Origin: a candidate division FCPU426 bacterium
GTDB lineage: Bacteria > Oederibacteriota > JAAXVQ01 > JAUVAV01
Length of the DNA: 12,774 nucleotides
Assembly: GCA_030637655.1 (NCBI GenBank)
Contig: DAOWGI010000086.1
Coordinates: forward strand, 1 to 12,774
Direction of reading: 5' to 3'
Positions 1 to 5,798 of this stretch are shown piece by piece (position 1 is the stretch's first letter; each line of letters begins with the position of its first letter). Position numbers and translations under genes: made by a program. The notes beneath the pieces were generated by a model, which searched no databases, had not been told where the DNA came from, and saw only the letters and a list, made by a program, of their open reading frames with translations.

Positions 1-141
1 ACCACAGCAGCTTGAGGTGGTTTGAAGCCATCCCCTGCAAGACGGCTCCGAAGGGCCTTCCTCCATCTCATGCACAGCATGGATTCGCAAGAGAGTTATT
101 TACTGCATATTCACACCTCCCCGCGCTCCTTCGTGGCGCAC
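1..141 (-). mobile_element. 5' end (start of domain I) of a second group II intron, probably bacterial class D (RmInt1-like), nested in the outer intron RT gene; continues beyond the window edge
   Basis: Minus strand reads TAT GCG GAT GAT T|GTGCGCCACGAAGGAGCGC..., with GUGYG at 141. The segment GATGGAGGAAGGCCCTTCGGAGCCGTCTTGCAGGGGATGGCTTCAAACCACCTCAAGCTGCTGTGGT closely resembles the RmInt1 domain I 5' region as I recall it. Confidence 0.85.
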
Positions 142-984
142 AATCATCCGCATACCGCACCATTTGGTATCCTTGCCTTTCCATCTCATGATCCAGCGGG
201 TCCAAATATATGTTTGACAGCAATGGACTGATCACCGCTCCTTGCGGTGTTCCTTCTTCCGGTCTCCAGCTTTTCATGCTCTCCATGACTTCCTGCTTCA
301 AGTATTGTCTGATCAGATCCAGCAGTCTTCCGTCGCTGATCTTCTCGGCTACCAGCTTGAGCAGCTTATCATGTGGTATGCTGTCGAAATAGCTTTTCAG
401 ATCAACATCCACCACCCATATGTATCCGGCTTTTAACTTCCGGCCTACTTCCCGCAGGGCGTCTTTGCATCCTCGGCCGGGCCGGAATCCGTAACTTCCC
501 TTTGCAAATCCTTTCTCAAAGATCGGCTCCATTACATCTTTCACTGCCTTTTGCACTATGCGGTCTTCCACTGTCGGTATCCCTAACGGCCTTTTCTCCG
601 AACTGCCAGGCTTCGGAATATATTCACGCTTGATTCCTTGCGGCTCGTATGTCCCTTCCCTCAGCTTTCGACTTATCCGTCGAGGTTTCCCTCCAGTTTG
701 CTTTCGTACTGCTCGATACTTTGCCCATCCACTCCTGCGCTGCCTTTGTTGGCTTTTACTTTCTCATATGCCGCTTCCAGGCTGCGCAGGGCATACACTT
801 TGTCGATCAGACTGAACCACTTGCCACCTTTCAACCCCGTCTCCAGGGCGGTCAACATGCGCTTCGTCCATATTGCCGGTTCCACCCATTCCCATCTCTC
901 GCGGATTTCTCCAACTTGCTTAGCCACGGAATCTTCCGGTTTCGGCACTTCCGCTGGTTTTGCTTCCGGCTGTATGGCCTTCAC
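142..984 (-). pseudogene. ltrA: Group II intron reverse transcriptase/maturase, disrupted by a frameshift near 680 and an intron insertion after YADD
   Basis: GTG start at 984 preceded by GGTGGAG. RT0 motif VKANKGSAGVDG, then stop TAA at 675-673. The -1 frame continues RISRKLREGTYEPQGIKREYIPKPGSSEKRPLGIPTVEDRIVQ, SYGFRPGR, VDVDLKSYFDSIPH, GTPQGAVISPLLSNIYL, VRYADD. RT similarity stops abruptly after YADD. Confidence 0.93.
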
Positions 985-1213
985 GTCTCCACCTTCCTGC
1001 GCTCCTTTGCTCCATGCCCGTTACGGCACTTCATCGCTAATACGGGCGCTCTGACTCCTGTCCGGCTCTCGCCACCTTGACAGGTCTCCCTGCTTCACGC
1101 ATTCCGCCTTCTTGCCGTCCTGTCTCCAACCACCCCACATGCTCCACGTCAGCTTTCTGCGTTTCCTTTCAGCTTCGCGGCTTTCCTCTCTTGGAGGTCT
1201 AGGTTTCGCCTTT

Positions 1214-1218
1214 GAATC
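1214..1218 (-). other. Putative EBS1 (GAUUC) of the outer intron
   Basis: Lies in the loop of GGTGAGCCCGC-GATTC-AAAGGCGAAACC, a context resembling the EBS1 stem-loop of compact group II introns. Perfectly complementary to the last 5 nt of the 5' exon (GAATC, 1398-1394). Confidence 0.65.
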
Positions 1219-1393
1219 GCGGGCTCACCGTCATGCAAGGCCGAATCGAGTTCGCTTTTCTACGGGCCGGCTTTTCGCCTCTTTCTGCTCCCCACCCCGC
1301 CTCACGACGACGCAGTTGACTTTGGCTTCAGGTGTGGAAACTTCACCTGGAGAGGACTTACACCTCTCGGACTGCTTGCGCTTGCAGGCGCAC

Positions 1394-1422
1394 GATTCCG
1401 GCTTAAACCATGCCGGAATGAC
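1394..1422 (-). repeat. REP-like hairpin GTCATTCCGGC-ATGGTTTAA-GCCGGAATC forming the 5' exon/target site of the outer intron
   Basis: 8-bp stem ATTCCGGC/GCCGGAAT (1395-1402 and 1412-1419) with a 9-nt loop, ending 1 nt before the intron's GTGCG. The GTCATTCC...GGAATC pattern is typical of a widespread family of intergenic palindromic repeats. Confidence 0.7.
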
Positions 1423-1645
1423 GGACGCTACGAAACTTGGCGGTTGGCCCGGGTTGCATGAATTTGTCGTTTCCGCAACAGCAACTAATTAATTATTGCT
1501 TAAATCACCTCAAATAATATCATCCGCCTAAAAATTAGCCAATCTATTTGACTGAGGAAAATTAAATTCCTTGCACTCTTTTTTACTTTTTTATGTTTCC
1601 TATAGGGCAGATACACCTCAATCAAGTATTAAATTTCTTTAAGTT

Positions 1646-1675
1646 TTGCTTCTCTTTTCCGATTCTATGTATAAG
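1646..1675 (+). promoter_or_regulatory. Possible sigma70-type promoter for the secreted protein/PorV pair
   Basis: TTGCTT-18 nt-TATAAG in an AT-rich intergenic region about 30 nt upstream of the ATG at 1708. Weak match only. Confidence 0.25.
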
Positions 1676-1707
1676 CAGTTTGATGACATTTATTGCGAGA
1701 TGAAAAC

Positions 1708-4065
1708 ATGACGAAATTTCTGAAAACCACTCCCATTCTGATTGCCTCGCTCTTGCTCTTGGTTGGGATTTCACAGGCAGATGTTACAGGTGTTACTTTT
1801 CATAATGTAGGCTTTGACGGCATGCGTTTTAGTGCCTCTTCAACCAATAATGTAGTCGCCAAATATGAAATTACTGCAGATACCATGGGAGGCTCTCTTA
1901 CTGCATTTGCTATCAATAACTATTACCAAACCCCGGCAGCAGAAGAAGGTCCGGATATTGTCCCCAACAGCGTCAAACTTTGGTACATGGCAGACGGCAG
2001 TGCTTTTAATGCCGGCACAGCCGTGTTTGTGGATACTCTACCATATATTGGTGCAGGTAGTTACGTTTGGGAACGCTTTCCTTTAAATCATCTGCTAATT
2101 AATGGAAGTATGCTATATGTTACTGTTGATATTACAGCCACTCCAACAGAAAACGCAATATGTGCATTCCAAGGTTATAAGGATGAATCAGAAATCCGCA
2201 ACCCAGGTCCAAGTTATATATATTTCCCCTCAACAACAGTCGAACCTTCCTCCCCACCTCTAATTTACCTCACCTCCTACACTGAACCCACTCAGGTTCA
2301 GGTGAGCAATATCAATTTCGGACAATCCTCTGTGTCCACAGGCCAGACGCTGGATCTTTTGGAATTTACTTTAGACAATATCGGCGGCGGTTTGACCGGC
2401 CCGGTTTATCTCAGCGGTTTAACCATTACAGTATATGATCAATTCGGCGCTGTCATCGCGCCGGATACTGCTTTTGACTCGATCGGCATCCGGGATGGTG
2501 TAACAGATACGCTTCTTTCTTTTGTGTCCTCACCCCCGGCCGGCGCTACCGGCATTTTCTTCCCCCTCTCGGTTTCGGTTACAGCTCTCACTGACAAAAA
2601 GCTCAAGCTTTTTGGTACGGCGACGACCAATACCACCACTGCTGTTTCCGCCTTCTATGTGGATTGGTTTAGCAGCTTAAATTTGGATGCCCAATATCTT
2701 TACACTCTAAGCACTGTTCCTGTGAATCCTGCCGGCGGTTATTCTTTCCCCATGGCCACTAATGTAATGGATGTGTTTTTTACGGCCACGCAAGTACAAG
2801 TTTACCACACACCAATTCTAGCGGACAACACAGTAGTGCTCAAAGGTCAGACAGACATCAATCCTGTGAATTATACGTTCATTAACCCGGGAAACTCGCG
2901 CACCTCGCGCATTGATATAACCAGTCTTACTTTAACAGTGACAAATGGTGATGGTGACACTATAACACCTTCTGCGGTTTTTTCCCGTGTAGCCATATCC
3001 GGCGGCCTCCTCTATGGCGAAACCACCTCGATTCCAACCACCGGCAGCGAGGTCACCATCACCTTGTCCAATAGTTATATTTCAGTGCCGGCCTATCAAC
3101 CTGTAACAACAACCGTGCAAGTGGACATACTCCCGGATGCCGGCGCGGTTGACTTTAGGTTAGTTCTGTCCGGCACCGCAGGTATTGCCGGGCAAGACGC
3201 GAATAATCTGCAGGCAGTGGCTGCTTTTGCAGCCTATGGCTCGGATCCCTTTCCCATGTCTTCAAACACTGTCCGTATAGCCAGCACATTTAATGTGACC
3301 TGTTGTTCTTTGGCGCCAATAACCTTGTATCCCAAGCAGCGGTCTGACATGTTGGAAATAACCTTTGAGCATCCGGGACCTGTGGATATGGGCAACCTGG
3401 AGCTGCGCGGCATTACCGTGACCGCTCAGGATCAAACAACCGGCGTGAATTTAAATAATTTCCTCTCAGATGTATACCTGGTCAAAGGCAACAGTTCGGA
3501 ATTGGCGCATAGCGTCATTTCTGCATTCGGAAGTGAAATTTATTTACCTTTAACCAATGTCACGATCGCTCCTTTTACCTCTTTGACCATGACCATTGAA
3601 ATACGTTTGAAAACCGCTCCAATCCAAGGAACACTTCGTATCGGGATTGCGGGCAATACTGATATCGATGCGTATCAACCCGCTGATCCCACTCGTCCGG
3701 TTTTTGTGGCCGGACTCTGGCCATTATTAAGCAATGCCGCAACAGTGGGAGGCGGCGAAGGCCAACTGCGCCTGTCCAACTATCCAAATCCCTTTGCTGC
3801 CGGCAGAGTAGTGACGCGCATCGCCTATTTCTTATCCGAATCAGCAACAGTCACAGCCCGGTTATATACCCTAACCGGCAACCGGGTAAATTCCCTGGCA
3901 GAGGGTGTTTTCCAGACTCCCGGCGAACAGGTGTTGCTCTGGAATGGCCGCGCGGCCACAGGCGCTGCTGTGAAAAACGGCGTTTATTTGCTGCGTATTG
4001 AAGCGGTATCTGTAGCAACCGGCGAAATCATAACGCAGATACGAAAAATAGCGGTGGTGAAGTAA
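1708..4065 (+). CDS. Secreted/surface protein with signal peptide, tandem ~160-170 aa beta-rich repeats and a C-terminal T9SS type A sorting/FlgD Ig-like domain
   Basis: N-terminus MTKFLKTTPILIASLLLLVGISQA is a Sec signal (ATG 1708 preferred over TTG 1693). Body is Thr/Ser/Val-rich. C-terminus reads LSNYPNPF...IAYFL...VTARLYTLTGNRV...LLWNGR...VKNGVYLLRIEA...KIAVVK. Confidence 0.82.
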   Translation: MTKFLKTTPILIASLLLLVGISQADVTGVTFHNVGFDGMRFSASSTNNVVAKYEITADTMGGSLTAFAINNYYQTPAAEEGPDIVPNSVKLWYMADGSAFNAGTAVFVDTLPYIGAGSYVWERFPLNHLLINGSMLYVTVDITATPTENAICAFQGYKDESEIRNPGPSYIYFPSTTVEPSSPPLIYLTSYTEPTQVQVSNINFGQSSVSTGQTLDLLEFTLDNIGGGLTGPVYLSGLTITVYDQFGAVIAPDTAFDSIGIRDGVTDTLLSFVSSPPAGATGIFFPLSVSVTALTDKKLKLFGTATTNTTTAVSAFYVDWFSSLNLDAQYLYTLSTVPVNPAGGYSFPMATNVMDVFFTATQVQVYHTPILADNTVVLKGQTDINPVNYTFINPGNSRTSRIDITSLTLTVTNGDGDTITPSAVFSRVAISGGLLYGETTSIPTTGSEVTITLSNSYISVPAYQPVTTTVQVDILPDAGAVDFRLVLSGTAGIAGQDANNLQAVAAFAAYGSDPFPMSSNTVRIASTFNVTCCSLAPITLYPKQRSDMLEITFEHPGPVDMGNLELRGITVTAQDQTTGVNLNNFLSDVYLVKGNSSELAHSVISAFGSEIYLPLTNVTIAPFTSLTMTIEIRLKTAPIQGTLRIGIAGNTDIDAYQPADPTRPVFVAGLWPLLSNAATVGGGEGQLRLSNYPNPFAAGRVVTRIAYFLSESATVTARLYTLTGNRVNSLAEGVFQTPGEQVLLWNGRAATGAAVKNGVYLLRIEAVSVATGEIITQIRKIAVVK

Positions 4066-5798
4066 TGCGTAAATATCTCCGCTCTCTCATCATTGGCGCG
4101 AGTATCGCGGGCTTGGCTTTTCCGCTTAGCGCTCAGGCGGCGCCGGATGCGGGTACTGACTCTGCTTTGTATTTGGGCAGTGGAGCGCGCGCGATTGCCA
4201 TGGGACGGACCGGGGTGACTGCTTTTGATTCCGCTTTTACCGCGGACTGGAATCCCGGGAGTCTGGGATTCTCTCCGCAATGTTCGGTTTCTTTACAACA
4301 CGCTTCTTTATTCGGCAACGCCTGGCACGAGAGCCTGGGTTTTGTATTTCCCACTCTGGATTACGGCACTCTCTCTTTGACCTTTGCCCGCATGGAAGTT
4401 GGCGGCATTGAAAGACGGGATGAGTATAATTTGCCGCGCGGTGACTTCGGAATGACTGAGCAGCAGGCTGTGATCGGTTACGGGTATAATGTCTGGGGAC
4501 CGTTTTCCGCGGGAACCGCACTCCGGGTACACAATTTGCGTCTGGATGGATTAACCGGCACCTCACCCGGAATTGACGCGGGTATTGCCTTCAAACTGCC
4601 CCTCCGGACCATAATCTTAAAAGAGGTCAGCAGCGGGTTCAGCTGTCGTAATGCTTTGGGACCGGCCTTGAAATTGAGCAATGAAGCGGATCGGCTTTTT
4701 CCCACCTGGCGTTTGGGCGCGGCTGTTAAAATGGAATTGGTTCCTGATTTTCCGGATCGTCTGATCATCCGGGCAGAAGCGGAAAAACCGGAACGCGCGG
4801 ATATTCGCCGGCAGGTGGGTTTGGAATACACAGTCTATGATTTGGTTTCCGTGCGCGGCGGCTGGGATCATGAATATCTCTCTGCCGGTATTGGCGTAAC
4901 CTACCTTGGTCTTACCTTTGATTACGCGCTCAGCTTCCCTGACCTGGGAATGCGTCACTTAATGACACTCTCCTATGCCATTGGTCAGAGCGTGATTGAG
5001 CGGCGTGCCAACCGGGAACGCGATGCCGAACGCCGGCGCCAAAAAATTGTCGAAAATATGAAAAACAAAATTATTCGGGATTACATAGCCCAGGCCAAAA
5101 TACATACCCAAAAACAGGAATTCGAGGAAGCTGCCAAATTGTGGGAAAAAGTGCTGGACTGGGCGCCGGACAATGCTGAGGCGAAGACAAAATTGGCTCA
5201 TATGGAAGAAGAAATCGTACGCGTTAAAAATTCCCGCGATCTAAAAACCGCTCAGGATTACCTGCGTAAAAAACAGTATATTGATGTGATGGTGGAATGC
5301 CAACGGGTTTTGGAACGCGATCCGAAAAACGCGATTGCCAAATCCTTACATGCTCAAGCTGAAAAAAAAGCGCAAAATCTGGGCAAATTCTCTTATACCA
5401 CCAATGTAAAACTGTTGCAGCGTATTCGGGAAGAATACCAACTCGGACTCCAAGCCTACACCAAGCGTGATTACTTGGAAGCAGTCAAACATTGGGAACG
5501 GGTAATAGAGGCCTCACCCTTGCAAAAACAGGTATACCGTTATCTGCAAAGCGCCCGCACCCGAATTCTCAAAGCGCAAAAAACTAAGAACAAAACACCG
5601 AAAATTGCCAGAGAAAACAAAAAGAAGCGGATGTATAAAAAAGCGGTGGAATTTTCACGCGAAGGCAAGCTCAAGGACGCGGTGCGCAGCTGGGAAAAAC
5701 TGGTCAAGGAAAATCCGAATGACCGGGATGCCAAACAAAATCTGGACAAAACGCGCAAGAACTTGATCGATAGTCAGAAAAAAGGCATTCGCTGGTAA
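4065..5798 (+). CDS. PorV/PorQ (UPF0164)-like outer-membrane beta-barrel fused to a C-terminal coiled-coil/TPR region
   Basis: Signal peptide ending AQA. Motifs GSGARAIAMG and DWNPGSL are typical of PorV/FadL-like N-termini. Amphipathic strands run to ...FDYALSF...RHLMTLSYAIG, followed by TPR-like units (EAAKLWEKVLDWAPDNAEA, CQRVLERDPKNAIA, EAVKHWERVIEASP, DAVRSWEKLVKENPNDRDA). Start overlaps the upstream stop (TAATG). Confidence 0.82.
   Translation: MRKYLRSLIIGASIAGLAFPLSAQAAPDAGTDSALYLGSGARAIAMGRTGVTAFDSAFTADWNPGSLGFSPQCSVSLQHASLFGNAWHESLGFVFPTLDYGTLSLTFARMEVGGIERRDEYNLPRGDFGMTEQQAVIGYGYNVWGPFSAGTALRVHNLRLDGLTGTSPGIDAGIAFKLPLRTIILKEVSSGFSCRNALGPALKLSNEADRLFPTWRLGAAVKMELVPDFPDRLIIRAEAEKPERADIRRQVGLEYTVYDLVSVRGGWDHEYLSAGIGVTYLGLTFDYALSFPDLGMRHLMTLSYAIGQSVIERRANRERDAERRRQKIVENMKNKIIRDYIAQAKIHTQKQEFEEAAKLWEKVLDWAPDNAEAKTKLAHMEEEIVRVKNSRDLKTAQDYLRKKQYIDVMVECQRVLERDPKNAIAKSLHAQAEKKAQNLGKFSYTTNVKLLQRIREEYQLGLQAYTKRDYLEAVKHWERVIEASPLQKQVYRYLQSARTRILKAQKTKNKTPKIARENKKKRMYKKAVEFSREGKLKDAVRSWEKLVKENPNDRDAKQNLDKTRKNLIDSQKKGIRW

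Follow-up and report, generated by a model that had tools for sequence, protein, structure and literature searches.

A probable twintron in a cold-seep bacterium: a class-D-like group II intron within the RYADD codons of another group II intron's reverse transcriptase

Does a contig whose first bases interrupt the catalytic codons of a reverse transcriptase (RT) record one group II intron nested within another, and if so, what kind of element is the inner intron and how might it have reached such a site? The window analyzed here is the whole stretch of DNA under study, the complete contig C114 (12,774 bases) from a 3.28-Mb metagenome bin of 120 contigs, and the other genes that it carries (ObgE, ProA, ProB, NadD, a response regulator, and PorV/PorU-like proteins) point to a bacterium. 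We put at about 85% the probability that the locus is a real twintron of a bacterium living in cold-seep sediment, in which a class-D-like guest occupies the RYADD codons of a group II intron of a different lineage (the host). An initial annotation had proposed such a nested intron. Its observation is borne out by the junction on the minus strand, an Rfam domain I match, a continuation on contig C74, and public contigs that span the junction, and its interpretation as a whole is supported by that continuation, a non-chimeric junction, class D features of the guest, and a separate lineage of the host, with two corrections: the predicted letters of exon-binding site 1 (EBS1) are probably wrong and the novelty of the arrangement is smaller than had been assumed.

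The minus strand reads GTG CGG TAT GCG GAT GAT T from 160 to 142 (V-R-Y-A-D-D plus T), as annotated, and GTGCGCC begins at 141, where the predicted GUGYG intron start is confirmed as GTGCG (141..137). The degenerate junction motif TAYGCNGAYGAYNGTGYG is found at a single place in the window, 154..137 on the minus strand, and was absent from all 200 shuffles. The first 141 nt of the guest (1..141, minus strand) contain the 5' GUGCG and the beginning of domain I, with the rest lying beyond the contig end, and Rfam RF01999 (group II D1-D4-2) matches 64..1 on the minus strand with 53.1 bits against a gathering score of 36, the 3' side of the match ending at the contig edge; the 5' end of the guest therefore has both the GUGYG start and the domain I of a group II intron. 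The guest is inserted within the RYADD codons at RVT_1 profile position 155/156, in the same orientation as the host, where it splits the next codon after YADD (Phe) behind its first base. By homology, the Tyr-Ala-Asp-Asp codons and the first Phe-codon base (142..156, minus strand) would serve as IBS2 (UAUGC), one linker base, and IBS1 (GAUGAUU), roles assigned from 25 relatives whose EBS2 and EBS1 loops pair with the same exon positions. Two further readings of the initial annotation stand, namely that the tail 'CAPRRSAG' in the open reading frame track is read-through into intron RNA and that the 141 nt are unlike the 5' end of the host intron at 1393, with which they have no self-match in a similarity search and just the letters GTGCGCC in common.

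Parts of window positions 1-400 were found in 20 listed public runs, which belong to 12 studies and are mostly metagenomes of cold seeps and marine sediment, and the contigs of four runs (X1-X4; Logan contigs, assembled by another method) were aligned to the window. A 399-nt contig from X1 (record 1) spans positions 1-398, and a 265-nt contig from X4 (record 25) spans 1-171 with 0 differences and extends about 94 nt past position 1; both bridge the 141/142 junction, so it is not the chimera against which the annotation had cautioned. Two contigs from X2 fork 30 nt inside the guest, one with the host-RT flank (112-894) and the other with the flank of a second guest copy, found on contig C113 of the bin. 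In X3, a host-type RT contig passes from 142 straight into D-D-F-V-I-L-S-R-S-Q-A-E (minus strand), and this uninterrupted allele gives the exon junction as GATGATT^TCGTG and shows that hosts with and without the guest exist together. The same run also contains a 17-nt loose end that suggests a third guest flank, again with R-Y-A-D-D.

The 5' part of the host covers 1252 nt of the window (142..1393, minus strand), beginning with GUGCG at 1393 and running through domains I to IVa to about 985, where the open reading frame follows. The N-terminal part of the host RT (143..984, minus strand) has a GTG start at 984 and RT motifs 0-5 and ends in VRYADD. In this assembly it carries a one-base frameshift near 679/680, with an extra base present behind 679 in X2 and X4 contigs; with the five X2/X4 differences at 675-693 introduced, no stop interrupts the 281 codons that lead from the GTG start to VRYADD, and the X2 contig with the intact frame also reaches the first 30 nt of the guest. 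The one-base deletion reflects strain variation or else an error in the consensus, and given the frameshifted RT the outer intron may be dead in this assembly.

The remainder of the host is found on C74:142-722 (581 nt), giving a host length of 1252 + 581 = 1833 nt without the guest, and includes a second domain V/VI (DV/DVI) pair (RF00029, 59.5 bits, C74:656-722) that ends in AU. The host is thus a group II intron by its GTGCG start at 1393, an open reading frame with RVT_1 and GIIM domains, a DV/DVI pair, and an AU end. That two intron lineages are stacked, as first proposed from the unlike 5' ends, agrees with the host RT being 36-40% identical to the proteins of guest relatives and with the host having neither the class D protein tail nor an RF01999 match. 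Its RT forms a very long branch in a quick tree, and a relaxed-threshold Rfam search with its domain I gave a weak RF02003 match (18.8 bits against 49). The host protein has no endonuclease domain and stops about 30 residues past the maturase domain. With its hairpin-adjacent site and short protein the host recalls class C, of which it would be a candidate member.

Upstream of the host, the 5' exon (1394..1425, minus strand) consists of an 8-bp hairpin (AUUCCGGC...GCCGGAAU) followed by C, so that the intron lies one base after the hairpin, with no U-tract behind it. This exon forms the left half of a two-hairpin dispersed repeat, about 100 nt long, whose first hairpin is AUUCCGGC...GCCGGAAU and whose second is GACCCCGGC...GCCGGGGU; the right half is carried by C74:723-790. 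A regular expression for the repeat gave 42 matches on both strands (about 20 places), mostly with a conserved right half (e.g., C56, C70, C93, C96, and C113), and since the host lies one base behind the first hairpin, the other repeat copies are potential empty sites. Summed contig depth in X1-X4 was 860-3900 over the repeat (1401-1450) compared with 4-14 for the host intron. Elsewhere in the bin, a copy of the host 5' end together with the hairpin exon (335 nt, 95.5%) lies at C30:23594-23928, and C30:28424-29327 is a degenerate RT/maturase with stops. More group II pieces occur on C75, C65, C105, C47, C110, C30, and C84, many at contig ends, and on C110 a domain I (2643-2527) and a DV (2396-2321) lie about 130 nt apart, suggestive of an ORF-less derivative. 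The same contig (locus L007:3091-3188) contains an Rfam DUF3800-V RNA (65.3 bits against a gathering score of 37.4), which is unrelated to the twintron. Beside the intron, window positions 1693-5798 (plus strand) hold two large genes, in which a type IX secretion sorting-domain-like C-terminus with weak PorU/T9SS matches and a PorV/PorQ family domain (91.9 bits) fused to TPR repeats were recognized.

The continuation that the initial annotation had predicted beyond position 1 is present in all its parts on C74 (a DV/DVI pair, completion of the Phe codon, RT6-7/X, and a second DV/DVI pair). C74 starts with a DV/DVI pair at 66-141 (RF00029, 56.8 bits against 40), and the 3' end of the guest folds into DV and DVI (-44.7 kcal/mol, z -5.7), leaving an A bulged out at position -7, features that would belong to the same element as window positions 1-141. 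After 141, C74 reads TC GTG ATA CTA..., which together with the T at window position 142 encodes Phe and then V-I-L-S-R-S. The RVT_1 profile (205 positions) is split accordingly, with positions 1-155 on window:143-676(-) (Pfam, E 3e-32) and 157-203 on C74, where a GIIM maturase domain (E 1e-15), a stop, and the second DV/DVI follow. Removal of the guest restores the host RT frame exactly. C114 and C74 are judged to belong together because the RT frame runs on across both and because the left half of the dispersed repeat is on C114 and the right half on C74; the pairing of C114 with C74, as opposed to C50, would follow from this continuity of the exons.

One expected detail differed. The guest was predicted to end in AY, and the domains are in place with the end ...CUACUCACC (ACC), which is also the end of 10 of 40 relatives. 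An alternative end at ...CAC, with one extra C shifting the host frame, was rejected on the basis of the relatives ending in ACC, of the X3 empty allele, which joins GATGATT to TCGTG, and of the branch A, which lies at -7 with the ACC end.

Both edges of the guest recur elsewhere in the bin. C113:1-141 is identical to window positions 1-141, with different flanks beyond, and C74:1-141 is identical to C50:1-141. The 141-nt boundary is not biological and probably reflects a k=141 assembler at a collapsed repeat. As two contigs end 141 nt into the 5' end of the guest and two start 141 nt before its 3' end, the bin holds two guest copies, the body of which was not binned. About 1.6 kb of the guest is outside the assembly, including the EBS1/EBS2 loops and all of the protein except the last 20 residues, so the pairing, length, and ORF integrity proposed for the window copy are drawn from its relatives and its ends. 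The second copy (C113) lies behind the stop codon of a gene, and its flank has no RT features beyond G-Y-A-D-D. From -15 to -1, 12 of the 15 letters of this flank agree with the RT site, and the copy looks like an ectopic insertion at a look-alike, non-RT site.

The class of the guest, for which bacterial class D (IIB3, RmInt1-like) is the candidate, can be approached from its protein tail and from its relatives. C74:2-61 encodes A-K-R-E-P-Q-L-F-T-H-W-Q-M-G-I-I-P-T-A-G, followed by a stop. Class D proteins are described as having the signature LX3AX3PXLF[V/A]HW in the C-terminal extension (PMC4615759), and 10 of the 11 visible positions of the guest tail fit this motif, with T at the [V/A] position and the leading L off the contig. 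The stop (C74:62-64) comes right after the class D tail and just before DV at 66, which leaves no room for D/En domains. A scan of public collections with a pattern for the guest DV gave at least 120 metagenome and at least 118 genome loci, and many of these match both guest ends about 1.86-1.94 kb apart. Among the matches listed, the closest are L220, L219, L249, and L156, full-length introns of 1.86-1.94 kb with which the 5' part of the guest shares 78-84% identity in a stretch of about 80 nt; at the protein level, the 20 assembled C-terminal residues of the guest are 76% identical to the L219 C-terminus. An exact 24-mer from the guest 5' end had 0 matches in the metagenome contig collection and 0 in the genome contig collection, and a BLAST search of window:1-160 found no near-identical guest copy in 60 relatives, with partial matches at 79-88% identity. 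The proteins of the relatives are 55-58% identical to the 419-residue RmInt1 protein (Sinorhizobium meliloti GR4, locus L253), and in a maximum-likelihood tree built by a quick search from 37 different proteins, RmInt1, B.th.I3, L219, L249, L156, and L208 form one clade (SH-aLRT 96), a placement that uses the proteins of relatives as proxies for the guest and RmInt1 as the sole class-labelled reference. The class D assignment of the initial annotation is supported by this combination of a protein tail signature and nearest full-length relatives in the RmInt1 clade, and the guest is best described as a putative class-D-like (RmInt1-type, IIB) group II intron.

With so much of the guest unassembled, it may be asked whether it is a dead remnant (truncated, ORF-less, or rearranged), or whether the C114 and C74 pieces come from different copies. 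The guest body is missing from the bin and from both scanned collections, the host RT is itself frameshifted in this assembly, and ORF-less or broken derivatives do exist, as in the closely spaced domain I and DV of C110 and the broken ORFs of L220, L127, L106, and L039. We nevertheless consider a dead guest, or one pieced together from different copies, improbable: two copies have intact ends that agree in all 141 nt on either side, which suggests recent mobility, the 3' piece keeps an open protein C-terminus up to the stop just before DV, the occupied and empty host alleles stand side by side in X3, and the bin's two 5' and two 3' junctions are what two complete copies would give. A full-length, class-D-like guest is the preferred reading, and its choice of site can be compared with that of its relatives.

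A 5'-end profile gave 112 matches in the 238 listed loci, and in 48 of these the 5' end was fully aligned and 13 nt or more of exon were present (two of the loci, L207 and L226, are identical rows from one genome). Among these matches, 25 of the 48 relatives sit directly after T[AT]YGCNGAYGAYN, and three more are site variants (one at RWADD, one at RFMDD, and one with a start call off by a few bases). All eight of the 5' flanks tested with Pfam are RVT_1 sequences that end at profile position 155, as in the window, and the closest relatives L220, L219, L249, and L156 are all in RVT_1 genes at that position.

The exon-binding loops of these relatives lie about 220-270 nt into the intron, compared with the 141 nt assembled for the window copy. 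Based on a domain I alignment, the EBS2 loop is GCGUA in 25 of 25 RYADD-sited relatives and the EBS1 hairpin loop, about 30 nt beyond EBS2, is AGUCGUU in 20, AGUUGUU in three, UGUCGUU in one, and GGUCGUU in one, the first loop base of the last two variants tracking the exon -1 base. In this scheme GCGUA pairs with UAYGC and AGUCGUU pairs with GAYGAYU, placing a G opposite each codon third position, so that C and U are both accepted. All 7 EBS1 positions pair in 21 of these relatives, and 6 of 7 pair in the remaining four. Of the 20 relatives with a different insertion site, 17 form 6-7 of the 7 pairs between these columns and their own exon sequence (the other three seem shifted by one or two columns), and this covariation identifies the loop as EBS1. 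The window copy would then read its site by RNA-DNA pairing in the manner of its 25 RYADD-sited relatives, and the EBS1 sequence AAUCAU(C) predicted by the initial annotation is probably wrong in detail, as all 25 use AGUCGUU-type loops that pair via G.U. No statement of this G.U logic at the RT site was found in the literature searched; as Dai and Zimmerly 2003 was outside the search, it is not claimed as new.

Other members of the family were observed at different sites. The introns of L023, L067, L223, L097, L108, L150, L022, and L119 follow W-H-x-D-E (TGG CAY NTN GAY GAG N; the first six loci) or A-D-I-T (GCG GAT ATC A; the last two), with 3' exons that read (x)YVKI.G or YIP. These sites look like what we take to be conserved transposase codons, IS6-like and IS3-like; a Pfam search of the short 5' flanks of L223 and L023 (82 and 56 residues) gave no match. 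In L085 (minus strand, intron start at 4095 in locus coordinates) there is an apparent three-level nest, in which a YADD-sited intron of about 1.89 kb is followed 644 nt later by the DV/DVI of its host, whose 3' exon again resembles a post-YADD stretch ((F)VVSFQYK).

That the guest is not a site-specific intron of RT genes at all, and reached YADD by chance or by ectopic retrotransposition from a normal home elsewhere (e.g., an intergenic site of the C113 type), is very unlikely. The position of the second copy after a stop codon, without RT features beyond G-Y-A-D-D, speaks for such a landing, but agreement of its flank with the RT target in 12 of the 15 letters is what would be expected of an ectopic insertion away from the RT site, the third flank in X3 again reads ...R-Y-A-D-D, and the nearest relatives are all at the corresponding position of RVT_1 genes. 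Least probable of all is an assembly artefact, in which the 141/142 join of an RT gene and an unrelated repeat exists in no real molecule, for although the genome is a metagenome bin of 120 contigs and the window stops exactly 141 nt into a repeat common to C113 where the assembler collapsed a repeat, independently assembled contigs from X1 and X4 span the junction, the downstream half of the same RT begins exactly at the matching 3' junction on C74 with the Phe codon restored, and the same junction occurs in 25 independent relatives among the matches listed.

Taking the locus as a site-specific insertion, a mechanism can be proposed. The guest would belong with B.th.I3, P.l.I2, M.a.I5, and UA.I3, a lineage retrohoming to the active-site codons (RYADD) of other RTs, and the site would be read by RNA-DNA base pairing (EBS2 GCGUA with UAYGC and EBS1 AGUCGUU with GAYGAYU), with C or U tolerated at third positions. 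Insertion may proceed by reverse splicing at replication forks without an endonuclease, as the class D intron literature would suggest. Every active RT carries the site, and each resident retroelement would thus offer a safe target. The host RT would be made only once the guest has spliced out.

A broader reading, which we hold tentatively and think somewhat less likely than its opposite, is that RYADD-homing class D introns form a large environmental guild of hyperparasites that attack any RT across lineages, one RNA reading all synonymous Tyr-Ala-Asp-Asp codons, and that sister branches seem to apply the same logic to conserved transposase codons. Hosts would then span lineages, from the IIC-like intron here to a retron-like RT in B. 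thuringiensis. The presence of 25 of 48 relatives at RYADD, among the matches listed, together with G.U pairing at synonymous positions would suggest a rule by which an RNA guide targets a protein motif and not one DNA sequence. At the scale of the single locus, the twintron is a clean natural example of a mobile element parasitizing another at the one sequence that its victim cannot change, although with the phenomenon in print since 2003/2008 no new question is opened.

RYADD-homing introns have been published from archaea and bacteria (M.a.I5, UA.I3, P.l.I2, and B.th.I3; PMC2504315), and the novelty presumed by the initial annotation, which knew of such introns in Methanosarcina, is reduced accordingly, with the bacterial P.l.I2 and B.th.I3 described in 2008 (PMC2504315). 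The published members are reported to be about 1.8 kb long with a B-like structure and are described as lacking an endonuclease (PMC2504315; PMC4424553), and they are given as 58-67% homologous along about 1.8 kb (PMC2504315). Homing into other introns is treated as a known route to safe sites (PMC4424553; Mohr et al. 2010).

The nearest of these systems to the guest for which a sequence was compared is B.th.I3, whose target AGGTATGCTGATGACT is identified by Tourasse and Kolsto 2008 as the RYADD motif of an RT (PMC2504315) and was located at L252:1258 on the Bacillus thuringiensis israelensis plasmid pBTHD789-2. Like the guest, B.th.I3 lies one base after the RYADD codons of an RT, at the same RVT_1 position, and begins with GUGCGCCACGAA; its EBS2 (GCGUA) and EBS1 (AGUCGUU) are those of the RYADD-sited relatives of the guest, and it is about 1865 nt long with no endonuclease domain, a KLFAHW protein tail, and six bases after the branch A. 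When the ends alone are compared, 139 of the last 141 nt of the guest align with B.th.I3 at 75% identity, and an alignment can also be made of the 141 nt at the 5' end. The sequences have nevertheless diverged, and the host of B.th.I3 is described as a retron-like RT and not a group II intron (PMC2504315). The name carries a conflict, as Toro and Martinez-Abarca 2013 (PMC3552965) are seen to place B.th.I3 in group g2 with FADD, while the L252 protein has YADD and falls near RmInt1 in the quick tree. P.l.I2 (Photorhabdus luminescens), M.a.I5 (Methanosarcina acetivorans), and UA.I3 (uncultured archaeon GZfos32G12), considered here by their published description, are of the same RYADD kind; their hosts are called 'related' group II introns, whereas the host of the present guest is distant, at 36-40% RT identity.

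RmInt1 (Sinorhizobium meliloti) has the same class signature in its protein tail, is described as lacking D/En (PMC4615759), and has a single linker base between IBS2 and IBS1, as in the guest lineage, but is reported to home to the insertion sequence ISRm2011-2 and not to RT codons (PMC4615759). In Thermosynechococcus elongatus, TeI3 inside TeI4 resembles the present locus in that a conserved site in one intron is the homing site of another, and identical inner copies are reported in diverged outer copies (Mohr et al. 2010). It differs in that the site is described as lying between two start codons in domain IV and not in the RT active site, and in that the inner introns are given as ORF-less and the inner and outer introns as closely related (Mohr et al. 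2010). Set beside these systems, the twintron adds a new case to the published RYADD-homing introns of archaea and bacteria, extending them with a cold-seep bacterium and with a host from another intron lineage.
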